Part shown: one piece after another, positions 5,752 through 56,000 of the stretch | Numbering within the stretch: the first letter of the stretch is position 1 | How the letters are laid out: the number at the start of each line of letters is the position of its first letter | DNA from: a virus | Reading direction: 5' to 3' (one strand) | Length of the DNA: 64,000 bases | Virus record (IMG/VR): IMGVR_UViG_3300021171_000012 | Span: 6,984 to 70,983 of that record | Made by a program: the position numbers and the translations under genes | The notes under the pieces: model-generated | Seen by the model: the letters and a program-made list of their open reading frames with translations, nothing else | What the model was told of the DNA's origin: nothing | Databases searched by the model: none

Positions 5752-7067
5752 GGAGTGACCGTGCCGCCGGTGCTCATGTCGACGTTGCCGCTATTTGTCC
5801 AACCAACTAAATCGCCCGAAAGCGGCGTACTGCTAAACGAGTTCGGGTAGTAGAAAATATAAAACCCAAGTGCAGCGTTGCAGCTAGCTACGGCACCGCT
5901 GGTCGCGCCGAAGTAGTTATTCTGATTCAGCAGCGGGCTCGACCCAGACACGTGCGTTGGAAAGTCCGAGCTTGTCGTACCGTGATAGCCGGCACACATC
6001 TCTCCAGACGTATCCAGCATCGTGTTGTTGGAGATCGTCATCGGAGTGGCTTGAGTACTAAGACCGTTTGAATATAGCTGATAGCCTTCGTTTCCCGCCG
6101 TCGGGCTCTGGTACATATATTCGGTGTTGTAGGAGATCGTGGTCGGCCCATTGTTTTGACCAAATTGTGACCAGTTCATATGGGCACTGGATGCAAGACC
6201 GTTATTCGGGTCATCCAGTAAATTGTATTGTATAGTGACTCCTGTCGAATTTGCCGTCCCTATTTGCTCATATGTATGGTCGCAATAGTGCGCCAACCAA
6301 TTATACTTCATCACCAACGACCCATTGGTCTGGGTAATGATGCTTAGTCCGGGTTGGCCAACTGTCTGGCAATTTGCCCCAACGGAACTACAAGGGGAGA
6401 AGTCTAATGTACTATTAGTAATAGTTAGATTCGTCCCGCCTTGATCGTGAACGAACCATGACAGCGCGCCGGAAGATGAACTAGCCTGGCAACCGATCTT
6501 ATTCTTGTCTAGTGTAATACTAGCGCACCCACCCGTATGATAGATATTCCCTGGGCTACCTGATTGTGTAAACGTCCAATCAATTGCTGTTAAGACTGCA
6601 TTACCGCTAGTGCATTGAAGGAATATGCTGGATGAGTTGTAAGTCCAACTAGCCCCACCAACTGTACAGCTTCCACCACTGATGCAAGTTGCGAATGCGG
6701 TTCGCCAATCAGTTAGAGTTGTTCCAGTTGGAATACCAACTGAATAATCCACGCCAGCCACATTCCAGGGCTGACAATTAGTCGCGCTAGCAGCGCCGGT
6801 TGATTGGATAATAACAAAGCCTGGAGCACTCGTTCCTCGACCTGAGCAAATCGGGTGGGAATTTGAGCCCTGACTTACTGTCAATAGGTTAGGGTACTGA
6901 ATTGTCGCAATTGGTGCATTTGGGCAACCGTCGCCTAGTGACGACCCTTGTGGACAGGTTCCGCCTGGGTTCGTTATTGTAATTGGTATATCGACTGGAG
7001 GACTGAGTATCTGAGCAGTAGCGACACTAGTAAGAAACAAAACACTAACAGCAAAATATCTAATCAC
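5748..7067 (-). CDS. Signal-peptide-bearing, Cys-rich beta-helix (pectin-lyase-fold-like) protein
   Basis: N-terminus MIRYFAVSVLFLTSVATA-Q; repeating ITNS/MKYNW/IQYNL/ISYNT/ISNNT Asn-ladder strands; 14 Cys. Confidence 0.55.
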   Translation of the reverse strand: MIRYFAVSVLFLTSVATAQILSPPVDIPITITNPGGTCPQGSSLGDGCPNAPIATIQYPNLLTVSQGSNSHPICSGRGTSAPGFVIIQSTGAASATNCQPWNVAGVDYSVGIPTGTTLTDWRTAFATCISGGSCTVGGASWTYNSSSIFLQCTSGNAVLTAIDWTFTQSGSPGNIYHTGGCASITLDKNKIGCQASSSSGALSWFVHDQGGTNLTITNSTLDFSPCSSVGANCQTVGQPGLSIITQTNGSLVMKYNWLAHYCDHTYEQIGTANSTGVTIQYNLLDDPNNGLASSAHMNWSQFGQNNGPTTISYNTEYMYQSPTAGNEGYQLYSNGLSTQATPMTISNNTMLDTSGEMCAGYHGTTSSDFPTHVSGSSPLLNQNNYFGATSGAVASCNAALGFYIFYYPNSFSSTPLSGDLVGWTNSGNVDMSTGGTVTP

Positions 7068-47973: not shown

Positions 47974-48441
47974 CTAATTACCTTCTTGCCAATTTATGAA
48001 GTAGTTGCTAAGTCCGTTATCCACCCCGGCGAGATTCCTACATGATACTGAGCCTTGCAGAATACCATTTATAATCGTCCATTGTGAGTCGTCAGCTAGA
48101 ATAATATAGCCATTCCCACCCTGGACATTCCAGTTCTGATAATGTAGATTTCCTACATTCTCTGTTGGTAGTACCGGCGGTGTGGAATAGGACGAGACAA
48201 ATGCCATACCAGGAGTTGCCAAATCAGGTGTTCCAACTACTATCGCAGTAGATGTAATCCCTTTTGTCGTTGGCCGAACCCATCTTGTACGATAACCGAT
48301 GCTTGTTGTTCCCGACCCGCCCCAAGAAAACGCCGTAACTTTACCAACTAAGCCTAATGGCGTTACACTAGCATCGAGGGTAAAGTTATCCGCCGATAGT
48401 GATGGAGTAAAATTTGCAACTCCATTAGAAAAAGCTGCCAT
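47974..48441 (-). CDS. Putative structural protein; paralog-like to 4093..4590
   Basis: NWNVQGGNGY and terminal INWQEGN. Confidence 0.5.
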   Translation of the reverse strand: MAAFSNGVANFTPSLSADNFTLDASVTPLGLVGKVTAFSWGGSGTTSIGYRTRWVRPTTKGITSTAIVVGTPDLATPGMAFVSSYSTPPVLPTENVGNLHYQNWNVQGGNGYIILADDSQWTIINGILQGSVSCRNLAGVDNGLSNYFINWQEGN

Positions 48442-48454
48442 AATTTAAGTCCCT

Positions 48455-48748
48455 TTATATTCCGAGAACCCTTGCATTCTGCTCAATTCGATAGCGGCGC
48501 GCCAGTTCTTGGTCTATAAACCGCTTAAACGACTCACAAACGCCACCAACTTTCATCTTCTCGGCACAATTTAGACAGAGCGGCTTGTCACAATTGCAAC
48601 AGTAACCACCACTCTTGCGCCAAACAGACTTCTTTATCGTTGCCTGGCAATGACTACAGCCAAGAATATCATCTTCTTCCAGACTATTCCAATCCGAAGC
48701 ACGGTTGTCGGAAAACAAATACCCTGCGCCGTTGAATCGGCTTCGCAT
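48455..48748 (-). CDS. Small Cys-rich zinc-finger protein
   Basis: CSHC...GGYCCNC..LC.NC...C. Confidence 0.6.
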   Translation of the reverse strand: MRSRFNGAGYLFSDNRASDWNSLEEDDILGCSHCQATIKKSVWRKSGGYCCNCDKPLCLNCAEKMKVGGVCESFKRFIDQELARRYRIEQNARVLGI

Positions 48749-49197
48749 TAGAGCTTGTCCTTAAACGGGCTCATGTATTTAACTTCGCGGGGTTTACCCT
48801 GTTTGTCTAATAGGGGTTGCTTACCAATATCAGCGTAGACAACCTCATTCTGGGTCCAATAGGCATGAATGATTCGGGGATACTCGATCACAATACCTGC
48901 ATGGGAAAATACCCGACCAAATTTGAACAGCGCCACGTCACCCGGTAATGGCGACGTAACTTCATGAGCAACCTCTAATAGTCCCATCAAATACCGCTCT
49001 GCATCACGATGAAGATGCCAATCGGGAGGATAGTAGCCAATCTCTTGATGCGGTAAGACTCCAGCGCGCTCATATACTTCCGCGAGTAACATGACGCAAT
49101 CAACTCCAACTTCCTTCAGTCTAGCTTGATGATGAAACGGCGTACGGAGCCAAGTTAGTGCCTCTATAACGACCTGCTCTCGCGGAGTCAGTTCCAT
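48748..49197 (-). CDS. NlpC/P60 tail-associated peptidase
   Basis: W..TPFHHQAR...GVDC...PGDV.LF...SHAGI...IIHA. Confidence 0.88.
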   Translation of the reverse strand: MELTPREQVVIEALTWLRTPFHHQARLKEVGVDCVMLLAEVYERAGVLPHQEIGYYPPDWHLHRDAERYLMGLLEVAHEVTSPLPGDVALFKFGRVFSHAGIVIEYPRIIHAYWTQNEVVYADIGKQPLLDKQGKPREVKYMSPFKDKL

Positions 49198-49198
49198 A

Positions 49199-50554
49199 TC
49201 AGTTAATAATCTCCACAAGAAACTCATTAAGTGCAATGTCAGCAGCGACGGTAGTAGAATTGCCTGTTATTGCAACTAATATAGCTCCGCTCTCGGTTGC
49301 GGTGGTCAGTGTCGGAGCCTGATAGCCTAAATGCGCTACGCCAGCGCCTTTGCCATTCGAGGTTGCTATCTGGGTATTCGACGCTGCTGCGCCGTATTTG
49401 AAAACATCGGCAGAAATAAACCAACCCCCAGTCGCACCGCTAGTTGTAATGGTTCCAGTGTCTTCGACAGTCGTTCCCCCCGTAACGGCGCTACCAAGTA
49501 CTGCTGTTGTCGCATTAAAGATTATTTTAATTCGCTTATTGTTCGCATTCGACCCCAGAGATCCCTTCGCTGATATACAAACGCCGCGCCCTGCAACGTC
49601 GAAAACATTCGCCGGAATGCTATATACAGCGATAACGTTGTCATTACCTGTCGACCCTGGAACAACGCCGGCGCCGCTGATCGAGCGCGCCAAGGTTCCG
49701 ATCAACGATACTGGCGCTACTCCTGACGAGCCAGCCCCTGGCAACAAGGAAGATGCTAATAGCCTAATCGAGATCGCCCCAGGTCCGGTGTAGGTAACTA
49801 AGAATAGACTGGTGCTATTTCCAGGAAATACACTTGCAACACCGGATAGCGTTACCCCGGAACCCGCTGCAAGAGTTCCATTATACGGAGAAGTGTTTAT
49901 ATATGTAAGTATCCACGATTGTCCGATTGACGGATTCGGTATTGCAGCAATTATATTCGCAGCAGTGTCTGTTGTGTCAGTAAATGGTCCGTTTGGCCCC
50001 GATCGAGTAATAACTGCTCCAACTATAGCAGCGGCAGTCAAAGTCCCAGCACCGACAGTAGTAATAGCCGTATTCATATCCGCCGCGCCAACGGTATTAG
50101 CCGCAATGGCCATTCCCGTCATTGAAACTGCGGCGGCGCCAGTATAGGACAGCAGGAAAATTCCGGTCGAATTTGCAGGAATTACTGAAATACCCGCAAG
50201 AGTGACTCCCGAGCCTCCAACTATGGTTTGGTTAAACGGGGTCGTGTTATTGATAAAAACAAGCCAAGCGGTGTTAAATGGGGACTCGGGAGCTAGAGTT
50301 CCAATAATATTGGTCGCACTGTCAGTCGTATCAGTAAAGGCCGCCGATGGGCCGGTTCGAGTTATGAAACCCCCTACTATTCCCGCCGCCGACAATGTTC
50401 CATTAGACCCCGTTGCGATAAACGTATTAACCTGTGGTGGGAATGAATCCGCCAGCGCAGCGATCTGTTTTGTCGTTATCATAGACGGCGAGATAACGCC
50501 GCCGCTGGCGGTTTCTGAGATAGTCTGTTCTGTTCCGAGTAATGGTCCGGCCAT
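49199..50554 (-). CDS. Virion protein with a tandemly duplicated ~100-aa domain
   Basis: GTLxAAxIVGxxITRxGPxxxFTDTTDxAxNII...GSGVTLxG...NST.LF..YTG occurs twice. Confidence 0.65.
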   Translation of the reverse strand: MAGPLLGTEQTISETASGGVISPSMITTKQIAALADSFPPQVNTFIATGSNGTLSAAGIVGGFITRTGPSAAFTDTTDSATNIIGTLAPESPFNTAWLVFINNTTPFNQTIVGGSGVTLAGISVIPANSTGIFLLSYTGAAAVSMTGMAIAANTVGAADMNTAITTVGAGTLTAAAIVGAVITRSGPNGPFTDTTDTAANIIAAIPNPSIGQSWILTYINTSPYNGTLAAGSGVTLSGVASVFPGNSTSLFLVTYTGPGAISIRLLASSLLPGAGSSGVAPVSLIGTLARSISGAGVVPGSTGNDNVIAVYSIPANVFDVAGRGVCISAKGSLGSNANNKRIKIIFNATTAVLGSAVTGGTTVEDTGTITTSGATGGWFISADVFKYGAAASNTQIATSNGKGAGVAHLGYQAPTLTTATESGAILVAITGNSTTVAADIALNEFLVEIIN

Positions 50555-50570
50555 GTTAGGCTTCTCCCGA

Positions 50571-50597
50571 CTAAAGAGCAAACTCAGGCGGCGGAAT
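50571..50597 (-). repeat. Displaced duplicate of the DUF2163 gene 3' end (IPPPEFAL*)
   Basis: ATTCCGCCGCCTGAGTTTGCTCTTTAG versus ATACCCCCGCCCGAATTTGCACTTTAG at 51160-51186. Confidence 0.85.
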
Positions 50598-50598
50598 T

Positions 50599-51144
50599 TT
50601 AAATGTCTAATACAATGCCGGGTATGGCCTTGCTTATACGTACTCGTGAAGATTTCGTAGTAGCTAATACATTATCAATCTCATCGTATTCTCTATATAG
50701 GCGAATAGTGGTTAGAGCCTCCGCTAATTGTGCAACATCTGCCCACAACGCAGGATTACTCTGCTTCAATCCACCATGTATGTCCCTACTGCAACATGCA
50801 AGTACCGCCAGTCTCCATATAGCAAAATCTGAAGCCTTTTTTGCACGAAGCGGGTACTTATCAAATATATCTACTAGAACTCTGCAATCTTCCCGGGCGC
50901 TAACTGCATACACAACTGTTGGATTCAAACGACTATGATCTCTATCTGCGTATATATTGCCTACCCCCACTTTATTACGTACTTCCACTAAAATCTTATA
51001 ATCGTCTGCGCGCAGACGAAGTTGAAAACTACATGTATATCCATATCTATTCTTTCCACGCTCAACGCGTCGAGTTATACTGAAACTACCTTCTCCATCG
51101 GTAAATCCTGCAAACCAATGAAAAAATGCATCATCTTCAGACAT
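50599..51144 (-). mobile_element. Free-standing single-motif LAGLIDADG homing endonuclease (C-term IVLDI)
   Basis: WFAGFTDGEGSFSI...D..IL......GVG.I...FDKYPL..KK..DF..W. Confidence 0.88.
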
Positions 51145-51159
51145 ATCAATCTCTCTCGA

Positions 51160-52113
51160 CTAAAGTGCAAATTCGGGCGGGGGTATGTAGGGCATTCCGC
51201 CGAACCGAGCTAGATTTTGAAACGTCCCATTACAGGTTGCAGTTGTATGGTCACAGCCAGGTAGAATGTAGAATGTATCACCGGCAGTGACTAAGCTCAG
51301 CCACGGTTTAATCAGATAGACAAATCCAGGTTGAATAGAACTAATCGTCCGTGTCTGGCCAGCGTTTGCGCCGGTTAGACACACAATAGTTCCATCATTA
51401 TAAACCGTTGCCGGCGATGGGCTGAAGCTAGTAGCAACAGCACCGCCCCCACTACTGGACAGAGCAGTAATATTAACCAAACCAATCCCTGTCGACGTTC
51501 CATTCGCCGCGGTGCCAGTTACTCGATTATAGCCGCATCCAACATCACCGAAGACATGACTACACGATGACATGAACATCCTTCGAGGCATCTGCTGAAT
51601 CTGAAGCAGATTCATCATTGATTTTACTTTTATCATTACTTTCGATCGCCCAACGTCGCAATCAGCAACCCGACCATAGAACCAGATTAAACAACCTAAA
51701 GCTCCTGTGTCGATATGATCTCCAATCGGGGGCGGGGCAAACAGACGGTCTAGTTCAATCGTTGCGCCATCGAACAACCCGATCCTAACTGCCTCAGCGA
51801 AAGGCGTTTGTCCGACTAAGTCATTAATACTCGGATAAACTTCAATATCAAGTTCCGCAGGTTCAATCCCAATCTTTACTGTCGCTTTTGTTGGTCCGAA
51901 CTTCGGCCCCGCGGCGAAAAATGACACAGGAAATACAGTTAACAAACTCCCCGCTGGGAAACTCGAACTAGGCACGGCTAGGGGCGATGTCCAAGACGTG
52001 TAGAACAGGGTAGGGGAACCAACCAGATCAAATGTATACAGATCCACAATCGCCGCGGCTAAATTCGCTGGATTCGCCAAATATGCTTTAAGGGCCGGCG
52101 TACAGGGTCTCAT
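51160..52113 (-). CDS. DUF2163/BR0599-like baseplate hub protein
   Basis: G.FDGA...L.R, C.H.FGD.GC, PGCD.T..TC...F.N..RFGG.PYIP. Confidence 0.85.
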   Translation of the reverse strand: MRPCTPALKAYLANPANLAAAIVDLYTFDLVGSPTLFYTSWTSPLAVPSSSFPAGSLLTVFPVSFFAAGPKFGPTKATVKIGIEPAELDIEVYPSINDLVGQTPFAEAVRIGLFDGATIELDRLFAPPPIGDHIDTGALGCLIWFYGRVADCDVGRSKVMIKVKSMMNLLQIQQMPRRMFMSSCSHVFGDVGCGYNRVTGTAANGTSTGIGLVNITALSSSGGGAVATSFSPSPATVYNDGTIVCLTGANAGQTRTISSIQPGFVYLIKPWLSLVTAGDTFYILPGCDHTTATCNGTFQNLARFGGMPYIPPPEFAL

Positions 52114-53012
52114 TGAAGAACACTCTGTAGCTTAATTGCCTTGGCTTCCCAAATTTGCCAAAGAAAATTAGAAAAATCTGTTGAATCCTCAGCAAAGCGA
52201 ACGTAGAAGTAATATGAAAATGACGCGGTGACGGCTGAACCGGGCATCGGAAGCGTGCTCCCACGGAACGTGAGACGTTGGTTGAGTGCCACATTATTAT
52301 CTACAATAAAATTAAGCGGATCAACCGGCAGTCCGTTTACTTGAACAACCGTCGGGACTCCTGGTAAATTACCCGTTACGAACCCTACGTTTTCTGTTGT
52401 TAGTAGAAATGTCCTTTGCATCACTATTGGCCGCTGCCAAGAAATAATATCATTCGGCCCTGTTGGAAGGACAATAGGAGGGTTTATAGAAACAGTGAAC
52501 GGAGATGGGAATCCGGTTACATATGTCGGAAAGGTAAATGGCTGAAATCCACCTATTATCGTTTCATCTTGTATCATATCTCCGATCTGCATTCCCACAA
52601 CGGGAGCAGGAAGTGAAAGTACATTTTGTCCAGGAAATGCTGGCCCTGAAAGCATACCAATTCCGCTGATGGTATTCGCCAATGGCTGACCAAATACGTG
52701 ATTATCACTTGTGTCCCAGAAGGCAAACCCACCAAACTGACCCTGCATAAGGGTGAATGTGCCCATAAGGGTTCGTAATTCGTCGAAATTACCGAACTGA
52801 CCACGCCCGCCATTAGAACCACGAACGTCCCACATATCACGAAGAAATTCAAATGGGAGGGTCCAGGTCCAGACAGGAAGAGGACGGTCTAGGATTCGGA
52901 GTTCTCGACCAGATACAGATGTTTGAATCCGAGTTCCAAACTTAGGAACCTTCATGACGGGAAAGCCTACTCCCGGAAGGAATGGGAATTTTATATATGG
53001 GTCGATCGCCAT
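52110..53012 (-). CDS. DUF2460-like distal tail protein
   Basis: P.F.T.IQ.S.SGRE.R...GQ..GF.F.D..D...VTA.F.Y...VRF.ED. Confidence 0.8.
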   Translation of the reverse strand: MAIDPYIKFPFLPGVGFPVMKVPKFGTRIQTSVSGRELRILDRPLPVWTWTLPFEFLRDMWDVRGSNGGRGQFGNFDELRTLMGTFTLMQGQFGGFAFWDTSDNHVFGQPLANTISGIGMLSGPAFPGQNVLSLPAPVVGMQIGDMIQDETIIGGFQPFTFPTYVTGFPSPFTVSINPPIVLPTGPNDIISWQRPIVMQRTFLLTTENVGFVTGNLPGVPTVVQVNGLPVDPLNFIVDNNVALNQRLTFRGSTLPMPGSAVTASFSYYFYVRFAEDSTDFSNFLWQIWEAKAIKLQSVLQ

Positions 53013-53013
53013 T

Positions 53014-56000
53014 CTAATACGCCATGCTTCGCAGAGAGTTCGCTCGGAACATGTCTCGGAACACGTTCGAGTTATTACTTATTATACCCTTAAACCAGCG
53101 GTCTATGCTAGGTCCGTCAGCTGGACCGTGGAAGTGCATATGGACTTCAGGAGACGAACCGCCAGCATTGCCGGAGTTTATCATATTCTGCATTCCAGTT
53201 GAGAGATGCTCTGGGAGGACCATCTCTCGGGGATGAAGGATACTAAGAGAACCTCCAGTAAGTCCCCCAGACGCAAAACTAGGGACAACCATTCCCTTCT
53301 CGGCAAATGCCAAAGCAAGTGTCGCAGCTTCCCCTATCGCACTGGCACCGCCGCCTCCCGCGCCACCCGCTGCCATTGCCGCTGACAAAATTGGCGCCGC
53401 CTCGACAGCGCCGGCAACAATTCCTGCACTGAGAATTGGTGCTCCCGCTGTCGCTCCAGCAACCTCCGCTGATGTTTTCGTAGCAGTTTCTGTTCCAACA
53501 TCGAATAGTTTGCCAACACCTTTTGAGATAAGATCACCAAAGACCTTGTCAAGTCCTTCACCAGCAGTATTATCGAACAAAGTTTTTGCTAAAGCTTTCG
53601 ATGCTGTCGATGCAAACGCCTTTAGAAGACCTTCGCCGATCGCGGTTGCAACCTGACCTTCAGCCTGTTTCCAGGTCGTTTTCTTCGACAAGACTCCAGT
53701 AATCGCGTTCTCAAGCGCCGAGGCAACGGAGTCGAATGCCTTCGTCCATGGCTCGGCCCACTTCTTCGTAATCGCCTCCTGCGCTGTTCGCATCTTTTCC
53801 AATAGTTGCTCGACTTCGGTTGTTTTCTTAATCCCGAGATCCCACTGTTGCCACCAGATTCGAGTCTGCTCAACGGAACCTTTAGTTGCATCCGCGATAC
53901 CGTAGACGGCATCGGCGGCATCCATTTCTTTCTTTAAGACTTCAGATAAAGCCCCGTTGAGTCGTTCAACCTCTTGGATGTCGTACTTATATGCATCGAC
54001 TTTAGAAATCCCCGGCCGCTTCTGAATATCAGCTTCAAAGCCGCGTAGAATGTCCGCAGCGGCTTTACTTTGCCCAGCATAGGACTCCTGATTTAGTCGA
54101 ACCTGTTCTTTCAATACGTCGTTCTGAGCCTGTTGTAGTCTAGTTTGCGCAGCGATTTTCTCGGCAGCGGACTTATATGGATCAGCTTGGATGATCGCTA
54201 GTTCTTCTTTGCGAATATTGACGATCTCAGCTAAATCGTCCCTAGCCCGAGCTGCGGCCTCCCGCTGCTGAAGCTGGGCCATTGTAGATTGCTGAGTATA
54301 ATTAAATTCTTGTTGTTTGAGTCTAACACCATCCTCAACAGTCTTTATAATCGCCACTCGCTGGTCGGCTTCAACCTTTCCCAGAGCAACATTCTGACTA
54401 TTTACGACATTAACCTTTAGAAATGCCTCTTTCTGATCCGCGCTCATAGACGCAAATTCAGTCTCTTTCTCCCGAAGACGATTCAAGGCTTCATAATCAT
54501 GCCTCTCTTCAGCAACTAGCTTTCGTAGACGCAGCTCGGCTTCATAAGCTTTCTCTGACGCTCCTAAGTCAAATGGTGACATTTCCCCAGAAGTCGACGG
54601 AGCACCTGGAACTGCTGTAGCCGCGCCAGTACCTTGTACAACACCGGACGTATCATACGGACCGCTCTTGGCCCAAGATTGCGATGCGTTCGGACCATAC
54701 TTACGAAGTAAAGCTAGGGCATTTACGTCTTGCGACGCTGGGGATATGTCGTACTTGCCAGTTATCGCCCCCATTTCGCGATAAGTCCCTGGCTGAAATC
54801 CATACGCGCCGAAGGCGTGAGACTTAAAGCCCTTTAATGCCTCGATTTCCTCTAACGAGGAGACAGTCTGTCCAGTTGCGTGGAAGGTATCGTAGCGTCC
54901 ACCACCTTCTCGTTGACGTACTTGGGCTAGAATAGCACTCTCGCTCGCAGTTGCGCTAGGTATATTAACTGCTCCAGACCCGTATGGATCAGCATAGCGC
55001 CACGCATTTCCCTGATCCATACGGCGCTGAATAGCGTCGGGAACTTTGACCGCCGCCTCGCCAGCGCGATCTAACATAACAATTAGAAGTTCAAGACCCT
55101 GTATCCAATTACGGAAATACTCTCCCGATGTAACCGACGCCTTGAAGCCCTCCCAGGCAACCGAAAGTTCGTTAATATCCTTATTTATAGAAACCAGTGC
55201 ATCATGATTCGCAGTCATGAACGGGTTAAGTGACTCCGATGCCGACATCAATTCGCGGAAGTTTTGGGAACCACCCTTAATTGCCGACATAATTTCCATA
55301 AACTGTTGTCGGCCACCAAAGGCTTCCATAATTCGCGAAGTTCTCTCCGCGTCGCCTCCAATTCGGACAATATAGTCCGAAATATCCATAAGCGTTTGCA
55401 TCGCGCCCTGTGGATCGCGAAGGCGCTTTAGCATTTCGTCCCAAGTTAGACCCATGTCACGAAAGGCCGACATCGCCGGCCCTTGCGGCGCCATAACCGC
55501 TTCTTGCATTCGACGCTGGAGGGTTTCTAATGTCCGTGCAGCAGTTTCGGCAGAGCCTCCCGTTAAACGAAGGGCACCAGAAAATGCAATATACTGAGGA
55601 ACCGAGATCCCAACCGCTGCCGCAACATTCTCTTGCCGCTCAGCAAGTTTGCCTAACTCTTCTCCCCACTTAGTTAAGTCGCGAGCTACAGCAGCCCCGA
55701 TAGCGATGCCCGCTAGGCCGACTAAACCTGAAATTAGAGTTGAGGCCCCCGCGCCAGTATCTCTCAACATCGAGCCGAATGTCGAGAACATCTGACTGAA
55801 GCGGCCACTCTTAAATTCGTCAAAGAGGGCAACGAAATGCTTTGCCTCCCGTTGGGCAAAGGCAAAATTGTCTCCAGTGTCTTTGACTCCCTTACTCAAT
55901 TGTGCATGTGCCGTTGCAGCTGCTTGAATCGACGCAACACTCTCTCGCTGAACGGCTTCATTCGCCTTGACTTGAGCATAGTAAAGTGCCGCGTCGCGCA

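Follow-up and report, generated by a model that had tools for sequence, protein, structure and literature searches.

IMG/VR virus record IMGVR_UViG_3300021171_000012 is 70,983 nucleotides (nt) long and is rated 99% complete; the runs holding it are soil metagenomes. We analyzed positions 6,984 to 70,983 of this record, a stretch of 64,000 nt that we call the window and to which all coordinates below refer, and in particular a homing endonuclease gene that stands behind a baseplate-hub gene between two copies of the hub-gene end. The site lies inside a tail module on the minus strand, and the features described here are all on that strand. The hub gene (51160..52113) encodes a protein of 317 amino acids (aa) that ends in IPPPEFAL and matches PF09931 (E 2.4e-18) and PF09356 (E 1.4e-17). 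The Pfam name of PF09931 is Phage_phiJL001_Gp84_N, a baseplate hub, and relatives of the hub protein are called DUF2163 by the National Center for Biotechnology Information. The last eight in-frame codons of the hub gene, its TAG stop codon and an 8-nt Shine-Dalgarno-like stretch make up copy A (51152..51186). By direct reading, a spacer of 7 nt (51145..51151) separates copy A from the ATG of a free-standing, single-domain LAGLIDADG homing endonuclease gene of 181 aa (50599..51144). Copy B (50563..50597), identified by repeat search and direct reading, begins one nucleotide past the TAA of the endonuclease gene. It is an orphan hub-gene end with a TAG and the ribosome-binding site GGGAGA, is not in frame with the endonuclease open reading frame (ORF), and ends 8 nt ahead of the ATG, at 50554, of a downstream 451-aa ORF rich in Gly, Thr and Ala (49199..50554).

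The two copies form a direct repeat of 35 nt (51186-51152 and 50597-50563) with a spacing of 589 nt. It is the top direct repeat of the region (83%), with agreement at 29 of the 35 positions. A first-pass annotation of this DNA had quoted two IPPPEFAL gene ends on the minus strand and had stated that their five coding differences were all synonymous and at third positions. The same letters are indeed found at these coordinates, and our count agrees: there are five differences in 27 coding nt, all at third positions and all silent. Beyond what had been noticed then, the repeat spans the stop codon and the ribosome-binding site, and the layout recurs at other phage genes (see below). The sixth difference, A/G, falls within the 8 nt after the stop codon. 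Both copies, each comprised of eight codons, a stop codon and an 8-nt ribosome-binding stretch, close with a Shine-Dalgarno-like sequence 7-8 nt ahead of a start codon. The ribosome-binding site of copy A appears to serve the endonuclease gene, and that of copy B the 451-aa gene; thus the endonuclease gene appears to use a copy of the translation signal of the downstream gene.

The similarity of the copies is well above chance and has sharp limits. The ungapped flank-to-flank score is 20, compared with a mean of 7.8 (standard deviation 1.0, maximum 13) for 1000 shuffles, while outside the 35 nt no homology was found on either side, the gapped local scores being 9 and 9 versus shuffle means of 9.4 and 8.8. 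For five substitutions placed at random in the 27 nt, the probability that none changes an amino acid is 3.6e-4, or 8.6e-4 if a transition bias is allowed for. If selection had held copy A while an untranslated copy B drifted, silent differences alone would be expected with P ~0.005, according to a rough calculation of our own. As all five coding differences are silent, the copies seem to have diverged as coding sequences in two separate lineages.

The assignment of the gene between the copies, described in the first-pass annotation as a free-standing LAGLIDADG endonuclease gene, is borne out by a Pfam match, by the absence of Rfam matches and by the ORF being separate. The LAGLIDADG_1 domain (PF00961) is found at residues 12-112 with 71.8 bits (curated cut-off 23.1; E 9.8e-20), and 62 sequences from PDB match the protein at E <= 0.01. 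The protein contains the motif FAGFTDGEGSF, which ends in an acidic residue, and keeps all 15 invariant columns of the family alignment A1 (G13, F14, D16, G17, E18, G19, F21, R45, D47, L99, R100, A101, K102, K103, and W110); we take E18 to be catalytic, by analogy with D20 of I-CreI. The single domain aligns to both halves of two-domain enzymes of the I-OnuI/I-PnoMI type in PDB, and therefore the enzyme is expected to be a homodimer. A homodimer model scored 0.78, while the best control scored 0.46. Among proteins of known structure, the mark that this score passes was attained by 20 of 30 paired ones and by one of 23 single-chain ones. At least 68% of contacts are shared between model runs, the predicted local distance difference test score (pLDDT) of the partner is at least 75, and the predicted interface lies along residues 5-18. 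Resemblance to LAGLIDADG dimers of known structure may account for the pass. The C-terminal tail of ~65 residues has no match among solved chains. The gene is present in a single copy in the genome and is compositionally foreign, with a GC content of 0.41 and a GC content at third codon positions (GC3) of 0.28, compared with 0.50 and 0.49 for the phage. This LAGLIDADG family occurs in 17 of 50,697 cultured phage records, in line with the earlier remark that such genes are uncommon in tailed phages.

To place the phage among its relatives, we searched the same phage records as well as metagenomic collections. At the DNA level, the 50,697 phage records yielded no match. With the hub protein, 225 of them matched, all at less than 60% identity. 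The same protein found one locus in viral contigs (56%) and three loci in metagenome contigs (51-60%), and in a set of 5.8 billion proteins the best full-length identity was ~61%. Viral contigs contained no match to a degenerate pattern describing the gene end of this lineage, and in two public soil runs no joint skipping the insert was seen over 48000-53500, a result that is silent on whether an empty allele exists. A second soil sample contained one identical piece of 390 nt (49762-50151), inside the 451-aa ORF. The first-pass annotation had suggested comparison with related phages lacking the insert, and this could be followed in part. Four related loci at 51-60% identity (L002-L005) have neither the endonuclease gene nor the 451-aa ORF at this position, and in them the hub gene adjoins a gene that, judged by eye, resembles the NlpC/P60 ORF of the window; none of these loci is close, and the best protein is the one at ~61%.

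The hub proteins nevertheless inform on the insertion point. An ending of PY[IVL]PPPE followed by three residues is found in 108 of the 120 listed hub proteins, while the FAL ending, among these 120, is seen in the hub protein of the window only. Since the ending is conserved and FAL is unique, the insertion point seems to lie in a strongly conserved motif, with both copies coming from the narrow lineage of this phage. For the same reason, both copies encoding the lineage-specific FAL, the donor was probably a close relative.

We then considered loci encoding relatives of the endonuclease, 80 viral and 80 from bacterial assemblies, all at no more than 46% identity. The endonuclease ORF could be located in 158 of the 160 loci. 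Recoded duplicates were defined as runs of six or more triplets that agree at two of their three positions and include two or more third-position differences. With the window counted in, they were found in 12 of 158 flank pairs, compared with 8 of 600 mismatched control pairs; a further locus, L064, was added by a peptide-level scan (score 98, null maximum 46). By sequence inspection, we consider L033/L034, L007, L086, and L064 convincing. In L033/L034, the duplicate is the 3' end of a capsid gene, comprising seven codons and the stop, with five silent differences and a changed stop codon, and the endonuclease gene is on the opposite strand. In L007, it is a 3' end of four codons and the stop with four silent differences; as in the window, the copies directly adjoin the endonuclease ORF on either side. 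In L086 (2924-3447 and 3410-4930), a Solirubrobacterales assembly, a gene for the terminase large subunit is concerned, at its 5' end. In L064 (2830-3612 and 1685-2833, both on the minus strand), it is the 5' end, ~23 residues (~23-30 codons), of an unannotated 382-aa gene. No relatives that would polarize L064 and L007 were found, and the relatives of the L086 terminase are all at 40% identity or less.

Several details of these loci deserve mention in their own right. In L086, the orphan N-terminus MTLSNESALLAQASP... lies upstream, and the functional gene starts at an ATG within the 3' end of the endonuclease gene, the terminase gaining 12 new codons from this start. The L064 duplicate flanks an oppositely oriented endonuclease gene and shows both silent and replacement differences. 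The flank matches in L029 and L077 were judged unconvincing, and seven loci (L113, L115, L122, L123, L143, L144, and L157) were set aside as probably another phenomenon, as they look like ribosomal RNA or group I intron contexts. These seven are from candidate-phyla and other bacterial assemblies and have the endonuclease relatives in ORF-poor regions, with near-repeats containing GGCTATATGCTGGAAC or GATATAGTCC on both sides.

The capsid gene of L033 has 63 related loci, 62 of them analyzable, and this allows one to compare carriers with alleles lacking the insert. The endonuclease gene is present in four of the 62. In the four closest endonuclease-free phages (97.5-98.6% identity at the amino acid level), the 24 nt of the capsid-gene end are the same as the orphan of L033. 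The in-frame copy of L033, in turn, belongs to a minority allele class, seen also in another carrier, L184, and in the endonuclease-free L180, L224, and L194. On the empty capsid allele, two BLAST segments overlap by 15 nt. Over the last 60 nt of the carrier capsid gene, the identity to the closest relatives is 78-80% (elsewhere ~83-98%), and that to the minority class goes up to 88-92%; the switch starts ~36 nt ahead of the stop codon. Judged from these alignments, L033 is a native backbone carrying a co-converted foreign patch of ~36 nt together with the endonuclease gene, and its orphan is native and the in-frame copy foreign, which is the polarity that the first-pass annotation had proposed for the window. 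The recoded allele class, elsewhere associated with the endonuclease gene, is found in L180, L224, and L194 in the absence of that gene; these three may be resistant alleles after gene loss or may represent the donor lineage before invasion. In L225, which represents a third lineage of this capsid family with the endonuclease gene, the last codons are shifted, relative to its relatives, to forms ending in A or T (TTA, ATT, AGT).

On this evidence, we consider it likely that a free-standing homing endonuclease cassette invaded the hub gene at its 3' end, bringing a foreign terminus and a ribosome-binding site and leaving the native terminus as an orphan. The proposed inserted unit, given by the repeat spacing, is the 589 nt at 50598..51186. 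Its phasing, with copy A inside the cassette, was picked by analogy to the sister capsid system and to mobile ORFs (mORFs) of fungal mitochondria (PMC3630166). Codon usage is consistent with this phasing: the differing codons of copy A (ATA, GAA, GCA) are those preferred by the endonuclease gene, and the likelihood ratios, from five codons only, are ~5 for copy A fitting the endonuclease gene and ~2 for copy B fitting the phage. The codon preference points weakly to copy A having travelled with the endonuclease gene.

In such a scenario, the homodimer would recognize and cut the conserved GGMPYIPPP-coding stretch of insert-free hub alleles during co-infection, and the break would be repaired from the carrier genome of a closely related donor phage. 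The cassette, comprised of the recoded end, the stop codon, the ribosome-binding site, and the endonuclease ORF, would be copied into the position immediately before the native end. Copy A would now complete the hub protein, and its ribosome-binding site would drive the endonuclease. The resident end, copy B, would be pushed downstream as an untranslated orphan that still provides the ribosome-binding site for the 451-aa gene. The carrier would be protected, as its own site would be interrupted, with a recoded downstream half. The empty site can be modelled by joining the hub gene upstream of copy A to copy B. This modelled site has nine of nine symmetric pairs, compared with seven of nine in the resident allele, and such full symmetry is found at 2e-5 of centres across the window.

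Several observations weigh against the proposed insertion, or at least against its direction. No insert-free close relative of the phage was present in the collections searched, so that the polarity in the window rests on analogy and five codons. GC3 is equal in the two copies, three of eight codons in each. In L225, the endonuclease gene is inserted cleanly right after the stop codon and no duplicate is seen; duplication is therefore not obligatory, and most of the 158 flank pairs have no duplicate. The matches in L007 and L086 are short, and close relatives for comparison are lacking. As for the palindrome, its symmetry is largely forced by the Gly-Gly and Pro-Pro codons, one in 48 synonymous versions giving nine of nine. 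The 9-bp inverted arms of the modelled site are 7 nt apart, a spacer that the usual 22-bp LAGLIDADG geometry does not fit, and the empty site of the sister system has no comparable symmetry. We therefore give the palindrome little weight as a hint of the target.

Some of the same facts could be read in the opposite direction. Copy A would then be native, the endonuclease gene would once have stood cleanly behind it, and copy B would have come later with the 451-aa gene from another phage, through recombination at the edge of the endonuclease gene; what the orphan marks would be a module-exchange junction and not the ancestral target. We regard this as unlikely, even though the absence of the 451-aa gene at this position in all four hub relatives puts the endonuclease gene exactly at the boundary between conserved and variable regions, and the clean insertion in L225, without duplication, agrees with such an order of events. 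Endonuclease genes have also been reported at boundaries of exchange between phages (PMC10055350). The sister capsid system, however, shows the opposite, on a backbone conserved on both sides; the codon preference links copy A, weakly, to the endonuclease gene, and the fungal precedents disagree with this reading too (PMC3630166). The repeat could also have arisen by duplication of 35 nt in place, for instance through slipped repair at insertion, followed by divergence of the copies in one lineage. A short, sharp-edged repeat would fit such an origin, and some divergence after insertion is thought possible for certain fungal cases (PMC3630166). Still, an untranslated orphan should change at any codon position, yet five of five differences are silent (P 4e-4 to 9e-4, ~0.005 with selection on copy A), and the sister orphan equals the allele of the empty site, which makes duplication in place very unlikely.

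The remaining two possibilities concern the nature of the insert itself. Were the 589 nt a group I or group II intron or an intein, their removal would let copy B complete the hub protein. Yet Rfam gave no match on either strand at E <= 1, and the endonuclease ORF takes up all but 43 nt of the unit. By reading, the splice-site signals are lacking: there is no G before copy B and no GUGYG after the 5' junction. Moreover, an in-frame stop codon already completes the hub protein ahead of the endonuclease ORF, the two ORFs are not fused, and the endonuclease ORF has its own ATG and Shine-Dalgarno-like stretch behind the hub TAG. Given the lack of an RNA family match and the stop codon between the two ORFs, the insert is evidently neither an intron nor an intein, and we consider this explanation extremely unlikely, even with LAGLIDADG genes being often intron-borne, as in the capsid-gene intron of mycobacteriophage LittleE (PMC3706429). 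Finally, since the record is a metagenome assembly, two strains might have been merged by the assembler. The probability of this is close to negligible: a 70.9-kb contig produced by a second assembler from the likely source run has the same arrangement, with one mismatch over 5.5 kb, copies A and B have no common exact run long enough to mislead an assembler, and the endonuclease ORF between them is intact.

The insertion of a cassette into the hub gene has its closest counterpart in fungal mitochondria, and the precedent invoked in the first-pass annotation proved to be real. In PMC3630166, mORFs with a duplicated C-terminus are described in Glomus atp6, atp9, cox2, and nad3, and, as cited there, in Allomyces macrogynus atp6. 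The inserted terminus stands in phase upstream of the endonuclease ORF and the native one downstream; the two differ far more in DNA than in protein, and the inserted one is attributed to horizontal transfer (PMC3630166). As in these mORFs, an endonuclease ORF (LAGLIDADG in Glomus atp6) is found within the 3' end of an essential gene, and the order of gene core, in-phase terminus, endonuclease ORF, and second terminus is also that of the window. The differences are that the duplicate is 35 nt here versus roughly 50-280 nt in fungi (PMC3630166), that the stop codon and a ribosome-binding site, the latter apparently reused by the endonuclease gene, are part of it, that the phage endonuclease is a separate ORF out of phase with the host gene and its mobility is putative, and that the host is a tailed phage of soil bacteria.

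Further free-standing endonucleases of the T4 type in phages are SegF and SegG. Intronless homing of this type, as described in PMC2330249 (SegB) and PMC2790892 (mobE), resembles the window in having a free-standing endonuclease gene between phage genes and in that spread is expected to proceed via a break in the endonuclease-free allele with co-conversion of the flanks, to which the ~36-nt patch in the sister capsid system may be compared. Unlike the enzyme of the window, the T4-type enzymes are GIY-YIG or HNH and intergenic, and in the literature searched we found none of them described with a recoded second copy of a gene end. Among LAGLIDADG enzymes, those of the I-CreI type are single-domain homodimers. 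The enzyme of the window is similar to the I-CreI, I-OnuI, and I-PnoMI types in having one LAGLIDADG_1 domain and a motif with an acidic end (GFTDGEG), while it differs from the solved I-OnuI/I-PnoMI chains in that its sequence similarity to them is weak (for the single domain, E is 1.4e-20 at best) and the C-terminal tail is unmatched. The only relatives among the cultured phage records are those of Mycobacterium and Rhodobacter phages, which belong to the same family at 34-39% identity. In contrast to the window, 16 of these 17 are filed under an annotated methylase or methyltransferase gene and one under a hypothetical gene; they are not free-standing behind a tail gene. LAGLIDADG genes of phages are known within introns and inteins (PMC3706429, PMC10055350). 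In the literature searched, which covered few subscription journals, no phage report was found of an endonuclease gene bordered by a gene end and its recoded second copy; this is not proof of absence. The window and the recurring cases above are the first phage examples of an mORF-like cassette that could be found.

Upstream of the hub gene, the tail module encodes a protein of tape-measure size (56469-53014, from the ORF list) and a DUF2460 protein (53012-52110). Downstream of the 451-aa ORF, it encodes an NlpC/P60 protein (49236-48748), two small ORFs, and a Phage-tail_3 protein (47953-46631); the three named families were assigned with Pfam. A Cys-rich ORF of 97 aa with several CxxC pairs (48455-48748), which follows the NlpC/P60 gene and precedes the next tail genes, has no match in Pfam or PHROG. 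The 451-aa ORF has no Pfam family, and its sole PHROG match is weak (head scaffolding, E 1e-6). By eye, it appears to consist of two tandem copies of a unit of ~110 residues rich in Gly, Thr, and Ala, TDTTDSATNIIG... and TDTTDTAANIIA.... The program-called start of this ORF is a TTG at 50581, within the orphan copy; the ATG at 50554, preceded by GGGAGAAG, is the more likely start. No tRNA genes were found in the window. Promoter- and terminator-like sites are no more common than expected by chance, and hence the endonuclease gene is probably read from the transcript of the tail operon.

This layout is an annotation trap, as it yields duplicated gene ends and wrong starts such as the TTG at 50581. 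If cleavage is true, the orphan copy provides the native target nearly free, which would be useful in the search for new meganuclease specificities. As a possibility that we rate slightly below even, we also suggest that this small LAGLIDADG family might follow a third lifestyle in essential phage genes, beside introns and inteins: a cassette with a silently recoded 3' or 5' end and translation signals, which would repair the gene, immunize the carrier, and hijack the ribosome-binding site of the neighbour, with the orphans as datable footprints of cut sites in hub, capsid, and terminase genes. The recoded patches directly mark gene flow among related soil phages. Under the proposed insertion, the locus indicates that a homing endonuclease can settle in the coding end of an essential virion gene, with neither an intron nor an intein, by means of a recoded spare terminus.

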